A stretch of 64,000 nucleotides of DNA, taken from Escherichia coli. Its GTDB lineage: Bacteria; Pseudomonadota; Gammaproteobacteria; Enterobacterales; Enterobacteriaceae. The notes below the pieces were generated by a model, which was given only the letters and a program-made list of their open reading frames with translations, did no database searches and had not been told where the DNA came from. Below are positions 42,590 through 62,093 of the stretch, in pieces; the stretch's first letter is position 1, and the number at the start of each line of letters is the position of its first letter. The stretch lies in NCBI RefSeq assembly GCF_048403405.1, contig NZ_CP183129.1; one strand, written 5' to 3'. The position numbers were made by a program, and so were the translations under genes.

Positions 42590-43501
42590 ATGGATGACTG
42601 TGGTGCGGTTTTGCATAATATTGAAACAAAATGGCTTTATGATTTTCTGACCCTGGAAAAATGCCGCAACTTTTCCCAGGCGGCAGTCAGTCGCAACGTC
42701 TCGCAACCGGCATTCAGCCGCCGCATCCGTGCACTGGAACAGGCGATTGGCGTTGAATTATTTAACCGCCAGGTGACGCCGCTGCAACTCTCGGAACAAG
42801 GGAAAATCTTTCATTCGCAGATCCGCCATCTGTTGCAACAGTTAGAAAGCAACCTGGCAGAGCTGCGTGGCGGCAGCGATTATGCGCAACGTAAAATCAA
42901 GATTGCCGCTGCACACTCTCTTTCCCTCGGTCTGTTACCGTCCATTATCAGCCAGATGCCGCCGCTCTTTACCTGGGCGATTGAAGCCATTGATGTCGAT
43001 GAAGCGGTCGATAAACTGCGTGAAGGGCAAAGTGACTGTATTTTTTCCTTTCACGACGAAGATTTGCTGGAAGCGCCGTTTGACCACATTCGCTTATTTG
43101 AATCTCAATTGTTCCCCGTCTGCGCCAGTGACGAACACGGAGAAGCACTGTTTACCCTCGCGCAGCCACACTTTCCGTTACTGAATTACAGCCGCAACTC
43201 CTACATGGGGCGATTGATTAATCGCACCCTGACGCGCCACAGCGAGTTAAGTTTCAGCACCTTTTTTGTCTCTTCGATGAGCGAGCTATTAAAGCAGGTT
43301 GCCCTCGACGGCTGTGGGATTGCCTGGCTGCCGGAATACGCCATCCAACAAGAAATTCGCAGCGGGCAGCTCGTTGTACTGAATCGGGAAGAACTGGTGA
43401 TCCCGATTCAGGCCTACGCATACAGGATGAACACCCGTATGAATCCCGTTGCCGAACGCTTCTGGCGTGAACTGCGCGAACTGGAGATTGTGCTTAGCTG
43501 A
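42590..43501 (+). CDS. hypT: LysR-family hypochlorite-responsive transcription factor
   Basis: 303 aa; N-terminal LysR HTH ([29 protein letters not shown]); recognised as YjiE/HypT. Confidence 0.85.
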
Positions 43502-43886
43502 CATTCTCCAGCGTCGCACTACGCCAACCGCCATTATCCCAGACCAGATCAAACGTTAGCGGTTCATCGTCGTGGTACAGCATTATCTCAAGGCTGATCG
43601 CCAGCGTGTGGCTGTACGCTTCTTTCAAATTGACCTGCAACGCCGCAATCCGTGGCTCATGAAATAACAGTGCAGAACGCAGCTGACGGCAATACCAGCT
43701 CTGAAGATGTTTGTCGCTCGGGTTATGCAGTTGCCACTCGGGCATGCCTGAAACAAGTAATGACGGTAATGCCGAATGAGGAGAATTAAAAAGAGTGAGG
43801 AGATCGCTGCATACCGATTTACGCAGCAATGACGTTTTATTGCCTGAAATTTCAGGTAAAACAGCCTGAAGTGATTGGCGCATCAT
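43494..43886 (-). CDS. iraD: Anti-adaptor protein stabilising RpoS
   Basis: 130 aa from the internal Met ([15 protein letters not shown]...); the ORF track gives 133 aa; 3' end overlaps the hypT 3' end by 8 bp. Confidence 0.8.
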
Positions 43887-44558
43887 TTTGCGCACTCCTG
43901 ACGTTTAGCAACATATGCGGCTTGCCCTGAACACCGGGCACCACTGTATTGATGCTCATTTTCCATAGCCATTCCCTTTTGTTCATTACATCCATGTCAC
44001 TCTGAGACAGGCCTGAATCCTGTCAGCAAAGTATAAAACCTTACTTGCCTATGAATATCTACTGACTTTTCAGGAAAAAAGTCATGATTTGATAAAAATC
44101 ATCAAACTCAAAAAAAAACTGCTAGTATATTCTGAATATTCCGAATAGTTACGTAGATGAAAATACTTGTCACCGTCGCTACATAATCCCGGAAAGCAAT
44201 TATTTATCTTCGCATAATCAGCCATGTATTATTTGAAACAATTAGTTTGTAAATAATATAAATTGATAACATATCAAATACATCAAAAATACCATTCACA
44301 GGCATTATTAATATAGACATCAATATAGCAACATCAAATTCCAATTAGTAATAAGATATGCTTTTAAATTGCATGCAAATAATTTTAAATGAGCGTTTTT
44401 TGATACTTTATAGTGTTTCCCACCCTTTAATATCACCGTGTAGAGTTGATATCACTACAACAGAAACATGCATGTCATTTGTTTACTTCTCTTTTTACTA
44501 CAGAAAAATTTATCTATTTTTCTAAACATCATTGAAATACTCATAAAAGGTAACTATT

Positions 44559-45389
44559 ATGTCTATGCCATTAAGCAATGCCGCTAATAACCAATTCAAT
44601 ACAAATAATCACTTCCTTCATCACCCAAAAGTCGACAATGAGTTAACACGTCGATATGAATATGCACGCATGGATACGGAAAATATCTATCTTCTGCCTC
44701 TTACTCGTGGCAATAACCATAATTACGATGGAAAAAGCGTTGTCGAAATTAGAAAACTTAATATTGGCAAACAGTCCTGGCCATTTAATTATGTAACAGA
44801 AACATGCAGCGAATTCAATGGTATTACAACAACAGGGCGTATGCTCTATCGAAACTTGAAAATCACCTCAGCTTTAGACGAAATATATGGTGGTATATGT
44901 AAAAAGGCGCATGCTGCCACAGAGTTAGCAGAAGGTTTACGGCTAAATTTATTTATGAAGAGCCCTTTCGATCCTGTTGAGGACTATACAGTTCATGAAA
45001 TAACATTAGGCCCTGGTTGCAATGTTCCTGGTTATGCCGGAACCACGATAGGATATATTTCAACCCTTCCAGCTTCTCAGGCAAAAAGATGGACCAATGA
45101 GCAGCCAAGAATTGATATCTATATTGATCAGATAATAACTGTCTCAGGGGTGGCAAATTCTTCCGGATTCGCCCTTGCCGCATTACTTAATGCTAATATT
45201 GGAATGGGAAATGACCCAATAATTGGTATAGAAGCCTATCCCGGTACCGCGGAGATCCATGCAAAAATGGGATATAAAGTTATCCCCGGTGATGAAGATG
45301 CAAAACTCAAACGTATGACTTTGCAACCGTCATCTCTTCCAGAGCTGTTTGAATTAAAAAATGGTGAATGGAATTATATTGGTAAATAA
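44559..45389 (+). CDS. yjiC: Uncharacterised protein YjiC
   Basis: 276-aa ORF in a markedly AT-rich segment, preceded by about 650 bp of AT-rich non-coding DNA. Confidence 0.75.
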   Translation: MSMPLSNAANNQFNTNNHFLHHPKVDNELTRRYEYARMDTENIYLLPLTRGNNHNYDGKSVVEIRKLNIGKQSWPFNYVTETCSEFNGITTTGRMLYRNLKITSALDEIYGGICKKAHAATELAEGLRLNLFMKSPFDPVEDYTVHEITLGPGCNVPGYAGTTIGYISTLPASQAKRWTNEQPRIDIYIDQIITVSGVANSSGFALAALLNANIGMGNDPIIGIEAYPGTAEIHAKMGYKVIPGDEDAKLKRMTLQPSSLPELFELKNGEWNYIGK

Positions 45390-45489
45390 CTACCAGGAAC
45401 AATGAGTACTAATATTCAGGTTATACAGATAGTTAAACAATACCCTGCAATTTAGAAAGTAATACTCATTGCGACTTCTTAATTTAAGA

Positions 45490-45518
45490 AAGCGCAAGGA
45501 ATGTTTACCCTTGCGCTT
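45490..45518. terminator. Hairpin terminator between convergent yjiC and uxuR
   Basis: aagcgcaagg-aatgtttac-ccttgcgctt stem-loop with flanking A/T runs on both sides. Confidence 0.45.
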
Positions 45519-45529
45519 ATCATAATAAG

Positions 45530-46303
45530 TCAGGCGTCGACTTTATCCAGCGGCCATGAATCAAACAGATAGCCGTCAAAATAAATATCGTCAACGTTCG
45601 AGAATTCCAGCAGACGTTGTTTAACGTTTTCCAGATGCTGCCACATTGCCAGCTTCGCCGCTCGGGCATCTTTTTTGATTAACGCGGCGAGGATCTGTTT
45701 GTGATCGCCCAACCACTCTTTGCGATACAGGCTGTCATCCAGATGGCTGTGCAACTGGATCCACATCGGATTGTTTTCCCGCCACTGCCAGGACTGACGG
45801 AATAGCTCCACCAGCATGCTGTTATGCGTCGCTTCGGCAATGGCGAGATGGAACTGCATGTCACCACTTTCGCTGCTGCCCGGCGCGCTGGAAGCAAGCT
45901 CACGCTCTTCCAGTTGCAATGCCTGACGCATTTTGACGATATCTTCGCGGGTAGCCTGCAGGGCGGCAAATTCCGCGATGTTACTTTCCAGTAACTGACG
46001 CGCCTGTAACAGCTCAAAAGGACCGGCATCATTGCAGACGTTGGCATCCGGACTGTCTGTGTTGTGGCTCCCTGAGCTATCAAGAACATAAATACCGGCA
46101 CCCCGGCGCACTTCCACCAGCCCTTTGATCTCCAGCATGATCAGCGCTTCACGTACCACCGTCCGCGTGACATCAAGCATTTCTGCAATTTCACGCTCCG
46201 GCGGCAGCCGTTCGCCAGGATTGTACGGCGTCTTTATGATCAGATCGCGGATCATCGCCCCGACTTCCTGGTAAGGTCTTTGCGCAGAGGTGACAGATTT
46301 CAT
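45530..46303 (-). CDS. uxuR: GntR/FadR-family repressor of hexuronate utilisation
   Basis: 257 aa; GntR HTH (EREIAEMLDVTRTVVREALIMLEIKGLVEVRRGAGIYV) and FCD domain. Confidence 0.9.
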   Translation of the reverse strand: MKSVTSAQRPYQEVGAMIRDLIIKTPYNPGERLPPEREIAEMLDVTRTVVREALIMLEIKGLVEVRRGAGIYVLDSSGSHNTDSPDANVCNDAGPFELLQARQLLESNIAEFAALQATREDIVKMRQALQLEERELASSAPGSSESGDMQFHLAIAEATHNSMLVELFRQSWQWRENNPMWIQLHSHLDDSLYRKEWLGDHKQILAALIKKDARAAKLAMWQHLENVKQRLLEFSNVDDIYFDGYLFDSWPLDKVDA

Positions 46304-57213: not shown

Positions 57214-57768
57214 TTATTGATACTGAACCTTGAAGGTCGCATCCGCATTAGCAGCACCCGGGGTTGCCTCGCCGATTGCATAATAACGCGCCTGGAACGG
57301 AATGGTGTTGGTATCGTTATTCAAGGTTGTTTGTGCACTAAATGTCGCACCGTCCAGCGTCAGCTCATTTCCTGTTCTGTCCAGTATCTGTACACCAACA
57401 TTTGTTGCGCTACCCGCAGCTGAACTCTGCAGAGCCAGTACTTTAGGATGAGCACTGTCAATCGCAGTCCCCAAGAAGGCAACAGCGGCTTTTGTGGCAA
57501 CACTGGTATCGCAATCATTCAGCTGAATGTTAAAACCGACAGCAGAGCTGGTTGCTCCAGTCTGCTTCAGACTAGCGGTACGAACCTGGCCCAACTGAAC
57601 GGTTTGATCAACAGAGCCTGCATCAACTGCGCAAGCGGCGTTAACAACTTCCCCTTTAAAGTGAACGGTCCCACCATTTACCGTCGTGGGTGTAGTTTCA
57701 GCCAGAGCCGCTGTAGAACTCAGGGACAGAGCGGACAGAACAACAATTGCCAGAGTTTTAATTTTCAT
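57214..57768 (-). CDS. fimA: Type 1 fimbrial major subunit (variant allele)
   Basis: 184 aa; signal peptide and pilin C-terminus ...ATFKVQYQ; the central region differs from the K-12 allele as I recall it. Confidence 0.9.
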
Positions 57769-57887
57769 ACTGCTTTCCTTTCAAAAAACTATTTCTAAAT
57801 CGACATGGGCAGTCGTTCTGTACACTTTGTTTTGTCAACGAGTTTGACTGCCAACACTGCACAGTTTTCCCCCAAAAGATGAAACAT

Positions 57888-58201
57888 TTGGGGCCATTTT
57901 GACTCATAGAGGAAAGCATCGCGCACAAACTTTTTCAGTTTATTTGTTGGCTTAATATTCTATTGTTATCTTTATTTATAGATTTTTATATTGCATGAGG
58001 TGGTTTTTGGAGAGAAGAATGAGGAAGATGCGTCGAGCCACAGAAACGTTAGCTTTACATTTGGCGGAGGTGATGTGAAATTAATTTACAAGAGAAATAA
58101 TTTACATATCAAACAGTTAGATGCTTTTTATCGTTTTTTAATATTTTTATGCTTGAGAAAAAATACGTAACTTATTTATGATATGGACAGTTTGGCCCCA
58201 A
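57888..58201. promoter_or_regulatory. fimS: fimS invertible phase-variation switch bounded by 9-bp inverted repeats
   Basis: TTGGGGCCA at 57888-57896 and its inverse TGGCCCCAA at 58193-58201, 314 bp end to end, lying between fimE and fimA. Confidence 0.85.
58153..58183 (+). promoter_or_regulatory. sigma70 promoter inside fimS (TTGAGA-N18-TATGATA), directed towards fimE
   Basis: -35 TTGAGA at 58153-58158 and -10 TATGATA at 58177-58183 on the + strand, just inside the fimE-proximal inverted repeat; points away from fimA. Confidence 0.5.
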
Positions 58202-58248
58202 TTGTCTTGTATTTATTTGTTTTTTAACTTTATTATCAATGAGTTAAA

Positions 58249-58845
58249 TCAAACCTCTTCTCTTTTTAATTTTTCGTTTATGAGATTATTTCTTTCCCAT
58301 AATCCGGCAAAACGAGCAGCATTACTGGCGGTATAACGTACAGTATGGCGAATATTTCGATGCCCGAGATAATCCTGAATTAAACGGGTATCGGCACCAC
58401 GCTCCGCCAGTTCATAACCGCAAGCATGCCTTAACATATGAGGATGAGTCTGCGTTACGGTTCCAGCTTCAATACCTGCATCGCGAATAATGCGATAGGC
58501 CTGCTGGCGAGAAAGCCGACTCCCGCGGCGAGAAATAAATATAGCGTCGGTCCGGTCAGCGCCTTTCCAGTTAGCACGTTCCTGGGTCCAGCGTTCCACG
58601 GCTTCACGCTCATCAAAACGTAACGGGTGAACGGTAGAAAATCCGTTCTTCAGTCGGCGAATATTTATTCGACCTTCATTAAGGTCAAGATCCTGATAAT
58701 GCAGATCAAGCAGTTCACTAATACGCATCCCATGCCGATATGCCAACAGAATAAGACAATAATCTCTGGCTCCCGTTGCCCCGTAACAAACCGCCTGCAT
58801 CATGGCCTGAACTTCTTTACCGGTAAGATAACGACGTTTACTCAC
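58249..58845 (-). CDS. fimE: Tyrosine recombinase for the fim switch (ON-to-OFF bias)
   Basis: 198 aa lambda-integrase-family recombinase (…HPHMLRHACGYELAERG…LGHRNIRHTVRYT). Confidence 0.95.
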   Translation of the reverse strand: MSKRRYLTGKEVQAMMQAVCYGATGARDYCLILLAYRHGMRISELLDLHYQDLDLNEGRINIRRLKNGFSTVHPLRFDEREAVERWTQERANWKGADRTDAIFISRRGSRLSRQQAYRIIRDAGIEAGTVTQTHPHMLRHACGYELAERGADTRLIQDYLGHRNIRHTVRYTASNAARFAGLWERNNLINEKLKREEV

Positions 58846-59322
58846 AATAGTAGTACTCCTGACTGAGATATATTTGAATGAATACCTATAGGAAACCTCA
58901 ATCGGTCAAAATTAGCCCAATAGATAAAAAGATAACCACACACGAAGTGATGTGGCTATCAGTCAATTACATTAAATATCATACAAAAATAAAATATCAC
59001 TGATGTGACAACATCTATTTTCATTGATTTGATTCAATATAACAATAGATTGCAGTGGATTAACTTCCAGTTGCTTAAAAAATAAAGAAAAAAGTATGAA
59101 AACAGGCGAATTTAAGTGATGTGTAAATTTATGAATGATTTTGTTTATTTATTTTGAAGAACATAAACCATTGGATTTTGTATGGGTATGGTTAACTTAA
59201 TGTTTATTATGATAATTAAGAATCACACTTACAATAACATCAATTAATAAATGGTTAATCATTTTTGATATATCGTAAGAATAATGTAGTTTTTAACACC
59301 ATCCCTGGTATCTCAACTATCT

Positions 59323-59925
59323 CTATAAAACAGCGTGACGCTGTCTCCCTCTGGCTCTATCCCAGATGCCGTAAAAACGCCCTGCATTGCTGGCGGTATA
59401 CCAGACAGTATGACGAATATTGCGATGCCCAAGATAATCCTGGATAAGTCGCGTATCTATTCCCATATTCGCCAAAGCAAAACCACACGAATGGCGTAAC
59501 ATGTGCGGATGAATCTCCAGTGACAACCCGGCATTACCGCCGGAAGTCGAAATAATATGGTAAAACTGTTGCCGAGAAAGCGGATTCCCCTTACGTGATA
59601 AAAATACCCACTCGCTCTCAGCATGCGGATAAGAAGTACGGATACTCAACCAATTTTTTAAAGCCTGAACTTCTTTGTTCAATAGCGGGTGCGTTGTTGA
59701 AAAGCCTTTTTTTAATCGATGGATATATATACACTTTGCCTTAAGATCAATATCCGAAATCCTCAATCGACAAATTTCACTCGCCCGGAAACCATGAATA
59801 AAACAAAGCAAAGTCAGACAATAATTACGTGCTGCATGAGGCCCGGTATTTGCTGCTTTAAGGAGTGACTCGATTTCACTATGGGTAAGGAAGTTCCTTT
59901 TTTTGTTATCAGCCTTATTCTTCAT
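59323..59925 (-). CDS. fimB: Tyrosine recombinase for the fim switch (bidirectional)
   Basis: 200 aa paralogue of FimE (…HPHMLRHSCGFALANMG…LGHRNIRHTVWYT). Confidence 0.95.
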   Translation of the reverse strand: MKNKADNKKRNFLTHSEIESLLKAANTGPHAARNYCLTLLCFIHGFRASEICRLRISDIDLKAKCIYIHRLKKGFSTTHPLLNKEVQALKNWLSIRTSYPHAESEWVFLSRKGNPLSRQQFYHIISTSGGNAGLSLEIHPHMLRHSCGFALANMGIDTRLIQDYLGHRNIRHTVWYTASNAGRFYGIWDRARGRQRHAVL

Positions 59926-60938
59926 CGTTTTCCCTTATAATTACAGACGCGCACTAGCTGTGCTGGGTTAGCAATAATCCAACATTTTAATCCTGATTAT
60001 GTTTATAAAAGCGAACGTTTGCTTAATAACTAACGTAAGTGGACCAGTTCTTCTGAGCGAATTTAAATGGAGTAGCGATAGTTACTTATAATAACTTTGC
60101 CATACAAACGCCATGCTCTTGCATGCTATGTACCTTTATATATTTATCAATCTGATACGAATCTAATAATAACCCTCATCATTAATGCAACTAATCTTAT
60201 CTATATATCATGTGATATGTTCTGTAACAAGTAAAATCAACATAAAAAATTCAGCAAAATTTAATATTCGTTCAACTAGCCGTCTCACATATGACATTAT
60301 TAGTCAACTCCACTTGCCACAAAATGGCTATTTCATGGAACGCAGTAATTTCTTAGTGGCTATTATCAAGCTAATTCTTAGGTCCCTAGCGATTATTCCT
60401 GGCTGGTTCGTCAGTTTAGGTCATGAGATTGTTACATTCCTTTTTATCCTGGAGATATGGGGGAACGCAGGCGACGCTTTTTCATCTACATCCGTTGGTA
60501 AATATGGCTTTGGTCACTACGACTTAAACCCTCCTCAATCACAGCTACTCGCCGGGCGATACGGCAAACAAACTAATTGAAACATCATCCTGAAAACACC
60601 AGCATCAACAAGCCTCTCCAGATCGACATCAGGAGTGACCAGTTACAAGCCACAAACCAAGAAACATATTTCATGATGAGAATTATGCTCAGCCTGATGG
60701 CGGGTAAACACTTATTTTCACCAAGCTCACTGAGTTAGCTTGCAAAGCTTTCTTTGTTTAGATTCTAAATAAATTATTTATAAAACATATAGTTAAAAGA
60801 AAATCTTTAGTTTTTGAAGACCACCGCAAGTGTTCGTCTGGCTTCACATGGCATCTGCCTCTTAGAAAAAGATCGACATATTTTGTGACACGAATTGCAA
60901 ATCTGGTTTTGTTGTATAGATTGCGTGATTTTTGATCT

Positions 60939-60961
60939 GGTATAACAGGTATAAAGGTGCG
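60939..60961. promoter_or_regulatory. NanR-type operator (GGTATA repeats)
   Basis: GGTATAacaGGTATAaaGGTGCG in the nanC-fimB intergenic region, about 415 bp upstream of nanC. Confidence 0.5.
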
Positions 60962-61376
60962 CCACGATAGTCAATGAAACTGGGCATCTCGCAATCTATG
61001 GCAAACATCACTTCAGTTCTTTCTCATCGGGTGATGAAAACGCACTTCAGTCTGAAAGGAATATGAAAATGAGATCAACAGACACTCTATTTTATGACTC
61101 TGGGTAAAATGGATTGAGTAAGTGATATAGCTTACGAACATTCAAATCAATTAAACATCAGAAGAGATTTTATACTCAGGTATTTAATCTGGTTCTCTGT
61201 TTATTTAAATAATGTGGAAAGAGAATTTTCACAGGAGACCTTATACAAAAAATATAAAATAAGCTACCCGTTGCCAAAGACACTATAAGCCTGGCAAAAA
61301 ATATTACACAACATAAATGCTAATTGTTTATGCGGGCTTTGTATTGCTTTCTGTATCCTACAAATGAGTGAAATTT

Positions 61377-62093
61377 ATGAAAAAGGCTAAAATACTTTCT
61401 GGCGTATTATTACTGTGCTTTTCGTCACCATTAATTTCTCAGGCTGCGACACTGGACGTACGTGGTGGATATCGTAGCGGAAGCCATGCCTATGAGACTC
61501 GACTCAAAGTCAGTGAGGGATGGCAAAATGGATGGTGGGCAAGCATGGAAAGTAATACCTGGAATACCATTCATGATAATAAAAAGGAAAATGCCGCACT
61601 CAATGATGTTCAGGTTGAAGTTAATTACGCGATTAAACTTGATGATCAATGGACGGTGCGCCCGGGAATGTTAACGCATTTTAGCAGCAACGGCACACGC
61701 TACGGACCCTACGTAAAACTGTCCTGGGACGCGACAAAAGATCTTAATTTTGGCATTCGCTATCGTTACGACTGGAAAGCTTACCGACAACAAGACTTAT
61801 CCGGTGATATGTCTCGTGATAACGTTCATCGTTGGGATGGATATGTCACTTACCATATTAATAGTGATTTCACCTTCGCATGGCAAACGACGCTATACAG
61901 CAAACAGAATGATTATCGCTATGCAAACCACAAGAAATGGGCGACGGAAAATGCCTTTGTTCTACAATACCATATGACGCCCGATATTACGCCATACATA
62001 GAATATGACTACCTTGACCGCCAGGGTGTTTACAACGGCAGAGATAATTTATCGGAAAACAGTTATCGCATTGGTGTGTCATTTAAACTGTAG
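61377..62093 (+). CDS. nanC: N-acetylneuraminic acid outer-membrane channel (KdgM family)
   Basis: 238 aa from ATG 61377 (MKKAKILSGVLLLCFSSPLISQA...). Confidence 0.9.
   Translation: MKKAKILSGVLLLCFSSPLISQAATLDVRGGYRSGSHAYETRLKVSEGWQNGWWASMESNTWNTIHDNKKENAALNDVQVEVNYAIKLDDQWTVRPGMLTHFSSNGTRYGPYVKLSWDATKDLNFGIRYRYDWKAYRQQDLSGDMSRDNVHRWDGYVTYHINSDFTFAWQTTLYSKQNDYRYANHKKWATENAFVLQYHMTPDITPYIEYDYLDRQGVYNGRDNLSENSYRIGVSFKL

Follow-up and report, generated by a model that had tools for sequence, protein, structure and literature searches.

The AT-rich tract at positions 43900-45389 of a 64-kb stretch of the Escherichia coli chromosome (hereafter the window, meaning the whole stretch of DNA that was analysed) is best explained, with a probability of about 0.7 for the account as a whole, as a variable segment between hypT and uxuR in which two divergent and lineage-restricted genes, iraD on the minus strand and yjiC on the plus strand, flank a very AT-rich control region of 672 bp. 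Strain TUM14771 matches the window at 100% identity and most other complete genomes do so at about 96%; the orientation of the window is the reverse of that in K-12. The gene iraD (43494-43886) encodes the gp25/TssE-like anti-adaptor of RssB, as assigned by NCBIfam NF010726 (E = 4e-90), Pfam GPW_gp25, and the annotation given to the 100%-identical record by the Prokaryotic Genome Annotation Pipeline (PGAP), and yjiC (44559-45389; open reading frame [ORF] and Pfam) encodes a 276-amino-acid (aa) protein of the DUF2686 family. An earlier note had read the tract as a horizontally acquired islet silenced by H-NS, composed of yjiC and a 650-bp leader. Its observation of AT-richness is confirmed and its interpretation is partly supported and mostly known already; what is new here is the evolution of DUF2686, which is confined to Escherichia, fast-evolving, and often lost, together with a hypothesis about its fold.

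The composition of the tract stands out at every scale considered. Its G+C content (GC) is 0.358, compared to 0.497 across the whole window, and yjiC differs from the surrounding genes at third codon positions, with a GC3 of 0.31 versus 0.52-0.64 in iraD, hypT, uxuR, uxuB, and iadA. A sliding-window profile placed the lowest 500-bp GC of the window (0.272, starting at 44061) inside the iraD–yjiC spacer, and among windows of 1490 bp the tract falls between the first (0.352) and fifth (0.373) GC percentiles. GC is 0.315 in the spacer (43896-44558), reaching 0.276 over its yjiC-proximal 519 bp (44040-44558, the "leader" of the earlier note), 0.392 in the yjiC coding sequence, and 0.336 in the yjiC–uxuR spacer, while the frequency of TpA in the iraD–yjiC spacer is 0.10 versus 0.05 in the window. 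The extent assigned previously, from the iraD start to the yjiC stop, needs adjustment, in that low GC continues past the yjiC stop and ends at the uxuR stop (45529); the iraD coding sequence itself is compositionally ordinary (GC 0.49). Likewise, of the long A/T tracts and repeated ATA/TAT motifs noted before, the former are represented by eight A/T runs of at least five bases, but the latter reflect mere composition, as searches for repeats and tandem repeats yielded no true repeat family and nothing beyond brief chance matches in two copies and a single tandem of 9 bp x 2.3. Sigma-70-like sites are not enriched (7 versus 8.5 +/- 2.8 expected from dinucleotide-preserving, composition-matched shuffles), and an Rfam scan of 43400-45700 gave two sub-threshold chance matches and no known RNA element.

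The larger part of the spacer is the control region of iraD. Work from the Lovett laboratory (bioRxiv 10.1101/2021.05.20.444958) described an unusually long region upstream of iraD, 672 bp in length, and placed the P1 start at -417, the P2 start at -137, and the sequence TTTTCCATA, a DnaA box, at -81. The spacer in the window is exactly 672 bp long, and the published offsets map to 44303 for P1 and 44023 for P2. In a promoter scan, a promoter-like site on the minus strand (TTGATG, 16 bases, TATATT; 44337-44310) coincides with the P1 position, giving a candidate P1 at 44303-44337; P2 (44023-44081, minus strand), placed by its published offset, has a TATACT -10 element upstream of the start, and the published DnaA box is matched exactly at 43959-43967 (plus strand), overlapping the idlP start codon. 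From P1, a long transcript runs on the minus strand through a ytiC-like ORF of 22 aa (44204-44272), the first of the transcript, then through ytiD (47 aa, 44082-44225, from the ORF list and so named in K-12-type genomes) and idlP (27-aa iraD leader peptide, 43883-43966, from annotation and translation) into iraD, with P2 acting as the proximal promoter. Positions 43887-44303 are covered by these opposite-strand transcripts and ORFs. Cotranscription of ytiC with iraD was reported in a published RNA-Seq study, and idlP is known as a leader peptide repressed by CsrA, to which iraD translation is coupled (PMC7652899). The published regulators acting at this region are DnaA-ATP, guanosine tetraphosphate (ppGpp)/SspA, CsrA (via idlP), and H-NS.

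With P1 starting at -417, about 417 of the 672 bp are transcribed away from yjiC, leaving at most about 255 bp (44304-44558) for the promoter and leader of yjiC, which are presumably confined to the last 220-255 bp or so beside the gene. This yjiC-proximal part (44338-44558, plus strand, GC about 0.27) holds the sequence AAATGAGCGTTTTTT (44389-44403), a block shared with E. albertii, and, on the minus strand, TAGATAAATT (44507-44516), which resembles an H-NS motif. Transcription of yjiC is predicted to start within about 44340-44540, for which TATAGT at 44409-44414 is a candidate -10 element. Comparison of E. coli to E. albertii gave 90% identity for idlP and the P2 promoter, 76% for the P2 leader, 61% for the stretch from P1 to ytiD, and 57% for the yjiC-proximal spacer; the ytiD ORF is not preserved in E. 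albertii. The 672-bp spacer is thus a divergent regulatory region that belongs mostly to iraD, and is not a 650-bp leader of yjiC, since the same DNA carries P1, P2, the DnaA box, and the opposite-strand ORFs ytiC, ytiD, and idlP.

Published data tie this region to H-NS. A published set of 78 "promoter islands" (PMC3661553) includes the spacer's K-12 orthologue (4554354, 526 bp, yjiC/iraD); the island table of that secondary compilation marks it as H-NS-bound in the chromatin immunoprecipitation (ChIP) data of Kahramanoglou (MG1655) and Oshima (W3110) and ties it to genes that GIST, Nakamura et al., and Lawrence and Ochman predicted to be foreign. Expression of IraD is reportedly inhibited by H-NS (PMC6064147, citing Battesti 2012). 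The H-NS idea of the earlier note is thus supported, and is largely published already. No expression data for yjiC in an hns mutant were found in the literature searched, and the supplements of PMC4288151 have no entries for it. The region is not simply silent, however: in a published RNA-Seq experiment, azidothymidine (AZT) induced ytiC 260-fold, more than any other gene of the genome, ytiD 33-fold, idlP 18-fold, iraD 14-fold, and yjiC 11-fold, and the induction of these five genes was independent of LexA and 2.7- to 6.3-fold dependent on SspA. In Shigella, yjiC is induced by RNA polymerase inhibitors alongside virulence-plasmid genes and fimB/fimE. The joint response of both divergent units suggests a shared, conditionally opened control region, in which H-NS filaments on AT-rich DNA would hold both units low during unstressed growth, and replication stress or starvation would open the region, with strong induction of the iraD operon and moderate induction of yjiC.

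The segment carrying yjiC is a presence/absence polymorphism within Escherichia. Near-full-length yjiC is found in 4881 of 5426 complete E. coli genomes, and about 531 (about 10%) have no match. In the short haplotype that lacks the gene (e.g., BH100), homology to the window ends at the hypT stop and resumes exactly at the uxuR stop; iraD and the proximal spacer retain 77% nucleotide identity to the window, and the yjiC-specific islet (44151-45529; 1379 bp, GC 0.352, by BLAST breakpoints against L003) is replaced by 150 bp of unrelated sequence, giving an iraD–uxuR spacer of 413 bp with a GC of 0.356. E. whittamii and Escherichia sp. E1V33 also lack yjiC and carry this short haplotype at 96% identity. 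The long form is found in E. albertii, where yjiC keeps its synteny but hypT is lacking, and yjiC is on this distribution at least as old as the split between E. coli and E. albertii. Where the gene is retained it may be damaged: in sequence type 131 (ST131) it is a pseudogene that has acquired a stop at codon 12 and lost 44 bp by deletion, and in ECZP248 it is disrupted by the insertion sequences IS1 and IS3. The atypical composition and patchy distribution fit a gene that was acquired long ago, or that originated within the lineage, no later than that split, and that has since been lost or turned into a pseudogene repeatedly.

YjiC, described earlier as a 276-aa protein with no assigned function, matches Pfam DUF2686 (PF10887, YjfZ/YjiC family) over its full length (E = 4.3e-146, 485.7 bits versus a cut-off of 25), and beyond this family no match bearing on function was obtained in NCBIfam, PDB (phmmer and profile search), PHROGs, PADLOC, or, for the C-terminal half, Pfam at E values up to 10. 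Homologues form 25 clusters among 5.8 billion proteins, all from Escherichia, and 1.84 billion representative proteins yielded only fragments of the same family, so far as these collections reach placing DUF2686 in this genus alone; the outlier P0058 of the homologue search, a repetitive protein, was judged spurious. The sole paralogue, yjfZ (37% identity), lies at another variable locus adjoining rplI, located via the truncated yjfZ copy, and is present in 2527 of the 5426 complete E. coli genomes. The ratio of nonsynonymous to synonymous substitution rates (dN/dS) of yjiC is 0.28 against E. albertii (bootstrap confidence interval [CI], 0.20-0.39) and 0.53-0.54 within E. coli (K-12), compared to 0.02-0.04 for the neighbouring genes; its dN is about ten times theirs. 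The reading frame has stayed open over 273-276 codons across a dS of about 0.9, and constraint is strongest in residues 144-276 (dN/dS 0.2). This substitution pattern marks yjiC as a genuine coding gene on which purifying selection is relaxed. The first 59 codons (44559-44735) have a dN/dS of about 1.4 and only 75% aa identity between this strain and K-12, compared to 0.2-0.4 in the rest of the gene, and the encoded Ser/Asn/Thr-rich N-terminus looks like a hypervariable one. The only phenotype found in the literature searched is a biofilm deficiency of an atypical enteropathogenic E. coli (EPEC) mutant with a transposon insertion in yjiC.

Structure prediction, which had been suggested together with remote-homology searches for YjiC, points to a core of the GCN5-related N-acetyltransferase (GNAT) fold at about residues 60-276, preceded by the variable N-terminal 59 residues. 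Two AlphaFold runs agree in topology (beta1, alpha, beta2-beta3-beta4, alpha3, beta5, alpha4, beta6-beta7), and Foldseek searches with both models returned GNAT acyltransferases almost exclusively, with E values down to 7e-5 and matches that include the TacT and AtaT toxins, Mom, AAC(6')-Ib, Gcn5, and SpeG. In GNATs, the beta4–alpha3 loop binds the pyrophosphate of coenzyme A (CoA), and many have a catalytic Tyr. The most conserved stretch of DUF2686, T194-V-x-G-V-x-N200-x-x-G203-F-x-x-A-A-L-L-N-A, falls on the beta4–alpha3 junction of the model; the motif A site of YjiC reads N200-S-S-G203-F-A205, with N and G invariant and A, V, or I at the last position. H234 in alpha4 (Tyr in YjfZ) is at the position matching the catalytic Tyr of many GNATs, this placement being a reading against the general GNAT consensus and not a computed structural alignment. 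From these models, YjiC is a fairly likely candidate for a highly divergent GNAT-fold protein and, at much lower confidence than the fold, probably an acyl-CoA-dependent acyltransferase that would acylate some substrate.

The fast-evolving N-terminus rich in Ser, Asn, Thr, and Pro and the H-NS-bound locus would fit a further idea, in which YjiC is harmful and for that reason kept silent, acting either as the GNAT-type toxin of a toxin-antitoxin pair or as an effector that is secreted. This is highly improbable: no antitoxin-like gene is adjacent on the same strand, the sole upstream same-strand ORF (44358-44525) looks non-coding, PADLOC and PHROG searches gave no matches, and the locus has no associated secretion system. 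The toxin-antitoxin version specifically (TacAT, AtaRT, KacAT type) was rejected, as the ORF list holds no plausible same-strand partner in 44304-45529 and PADLOC has no match.

Several observations weigh against the proposed account of a variable, H-NS-bound segment with a GNAT-like gene. With respect to regulation, H-NS occupancy and derepression are taken from the published secondary compilation of ChIP data, and AZT does not globally relieve H-NS silencing, for which reason it is an inference that H-NS has a part in the AZT response. With respect to the fold, AlphaFold2 runs on a shallow alignment of 6-7 sequences gave a poor model of full-length YjiC, with a predicted local distance difference test (pLDDT) score of 50, and a better one, of medium confidence, for residues 47-276 (pLDDT 68 overall and 74-92 in the C-terminal half; predicted template modelling score 0.67). 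No sequence link between DUF2686 and GNATs was detected by Pfam at E values up to 10 or by phmmer and hmmsearch against PDB, and when DUF2686 was compared by hhalign to YiaC, a GNAT of E. coli, the probability was 0.7%. The motif A of YjiC, N-x-x-G-x-A/V/I, is non-canonical compared to the Q/R-x-x-G-x-G/A of GNATs, though rightly placed. With respect to function, roughly one in four complete E. coli genomes seemingly lacks an intact yjiC, so that any function of the gene is dispensable. With respect to origin, no tRNA, flanking repeat, integrase, or mobility gene was found at the locus, and no phage homologue or true plasmid copy of yjiC. The horizontal acquisition suggested in the earlier note retains the atypical composition and patchy distribution in its favour, and it is from these that we infer it, because neither a donor nor a mobility signature was found. 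The nine PLSDB "plasmid" records that contain yjiC are 0.37-4.9 Mb in size and non-mobilizable, and represent mislabelled chromosomes or chromosome fragments.

The same absence of a donor, integrase, tRNA, or flanking repeats would be expected if the AT-richness were mainly native regulatory architecture instead of foreign DNA, with a spacer that packs promoters, a ppGpp-sensitive discriminator, sites for DnaA, H-NS, and SspA, and a structured iraD leader, and with yjiC as a recently arisen gene, orphan or de novo-like and specific to the lineage, whose composition is inherited from its surroundings. The yjiC-less short haplotype, whose 413-bp spacer still has a GC of 0.356, and the restriction of the family to Escherichia point the same way. 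This explanation is nonetheless unlikely, as the GC3 of 0.31 extends over all 831 bp of yjiC, a 37%-identical paralogue is present at another variable locus, published composition-based predictors call the locus foreign, and the predicted GNAT fold would imply descent from an older protein family and not de novo birth.

A third possibility is that yjiC is a decaying, functionless ORF, the relic of an old insertion, and that its fold match is an artefact of the shallow alignment. The ST131 pseudogene, the insertion sequences in ECZP248, the roughly 531 of 5426 genomes without the gene, the tenfold dN relative to the neighbours, and the low model confidence are all compatible with decay. In contrast, the reading frame has been maintained at a dS of about 0.9, the upper CI bound of the dN/dS of 0.28 is 0.39, constraint peaks in what is predicted to be the CoA-binding core, yjiC is transcribed and induced, and its interruption by a transposon left atypical EPEC biofilm-deficient. 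Decay is considered very unlikely, and the variable segment with a shared control region is retained as the preferred explanation.

A bolder proposal combines the separate lines: DUF2686 (YjiC and YjfZ) might be a cryptic, extremely divergent, Escherichia-only GNAT acyltransferase family under H-NS control, switched on with the iraD anti-adaptor operon in replication stress and modifying a cellular protein or small molecule, with the fast-evolving N-terminus perhaps specifying the target. As a whole this is speculative and quite unlikely, but if true, it would tie the LexA-independent damage response to biofilm behaviour. Much of the present outcome is housekeeping, in that the compositional oddity corresponds to an already catalogued H-NS-bound region and the idea of a 650-bp yjiC leader has been corrected. 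In addition, a y-gene family gains a testable structural hypothesis, that of a predicted GNAT acyltransferase with its conserved loop at the putative CoA site. Since iraD, which encodes a key regulator of RpoS, has its control region and stress response in common with yjiC, one could test directly whether yjiC contributes to biofilm formation or to the LexA-independent damage response. A practical aside concerns a published water-quality marker: the E. coli-specific quantitative PCR (qPCR) primers and probe for "YjfZ" (PMC11057252) in fact target yjiC (44830-44943), with 0-1 mismatches to yjiC of K-12 and the window, a 114-bp amplicon as reported, and 7-13 mismatches to K-12 yjfZ. The marker is not universal, since a sizeable minority of complete genomes have either no yjiC or a truncated one.

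Several features of the surrounding DNA were also recorded. Upstream of iraD in the window are iadA (41353-42525) and hypT (42590-43501), both on the plus strand, and beyond yjiC are uxuR (45530-46303, minus strand) and then uxuB. A GC-rich hairpin between the convergent yjiC and uxuR (45488-45522; -18.3 kcal/mol, z = -6.1 versus shuffles) is probably their shared bidirectional terminator; a simple terminator scan missed it. In E. albertii, hypT is absent between iadA and iraD (L007, 3816-3960), and remnants of it are seen in two divergent "E. coli" genomes (L009, 3394-3943; L016, 6397-6722), which makes the whole iadA–uxuR interval, and not yjiC alone, a hotspot of gene turnover. Two deeply diverged iraD alleles exist, with about 76-80% aa identity (L003, 3528-3911, versus L007, 3960-4346), and the allele of yjiC-less E. 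coli resembles the E. albertii/E. whittamii type, which suggests ancient polymorphism or introgression. A genome scan with an IraD alignment recovered Escherichia and one contaminant contig only, its peptide patterns being narrow and giving little information on distant IraD relatives, e.g., in Salmonella. The contig (L013, NZ_ABFU01000118.1, 605 bp, "Bacillus coahuilensis m4-4") codes for an IraD that shares 98% identity with the E. coli protein and is almost certainly E. coli contamination of the Bacillus assembly. Two other large low-GC tracts are present in the window. One, at 57651-61700 (GC 0.375-0.393), is nanC–fimB–fimE–fimA, the type 1 fimbrial switch region, which is classically H-NS-bound and is entered in the same promoter-island table (PMC3661553); the other, at 28951-31600 (GC 0.36-0.38), contains genes for a pentapeptide-repeat protein and an SdiA-regulated-domain protein and adjoins the large inverse autotransporter gene iatD.

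Among known systems, the closest to the spacer is the iraD regulatory region of K-12, to which it is equal in length (672 bp) and 97.6% identical, with all published landmarks at the expected offsets. The differences are ones of naming: PGAP calls the small ORFs of this strain "hypothetical" instead of ytiC and ytiD, and the earlier note had given the region to yjiC. Similarly, yjfZ resembles yjiC in length class, conserved core, convergent arrangement with a conserved gene (rplI), and presence/absence polymorphism, and differs in its locus, in having Tyr instead of His at the putative catalytic position, and in forming a single, nearly invariant sequence cluster. With the GNAT superfamily (TacT/AtaT, AAC(6')-Ib, SpeG), YjiC would share the predicted topology, a conserved glycine-containing beta4–alpha3 loop, and a conserved His/Tyr in alpha4; in contrast, YjiC has no detectable sequence similarity to these proteins and carries a variable N-terminal extension of about 59 residues and a low-confidence insertion of about 45 residues after beta1. 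Finally, like the H-NS-bound promoter islands and xenogeneically silenced islets typified by nanC–fimB–fimE–fimA, the iraD–yjiC region is very low in GC, rich in TpA, and dense in promoter-like sequences, its K-12 orthologue has published H-NS ChIP occupancy, and its genes are lineage-restricted and patchily distributed. It differs from such islands in being without mobility genes or attachment sites, in an age that reaches back to the split of E. coli and E. albertii, in containing two characterised iraD promoters, and in being transcriptionally active, with a stress inducibility that ranks with the highest in the genome.

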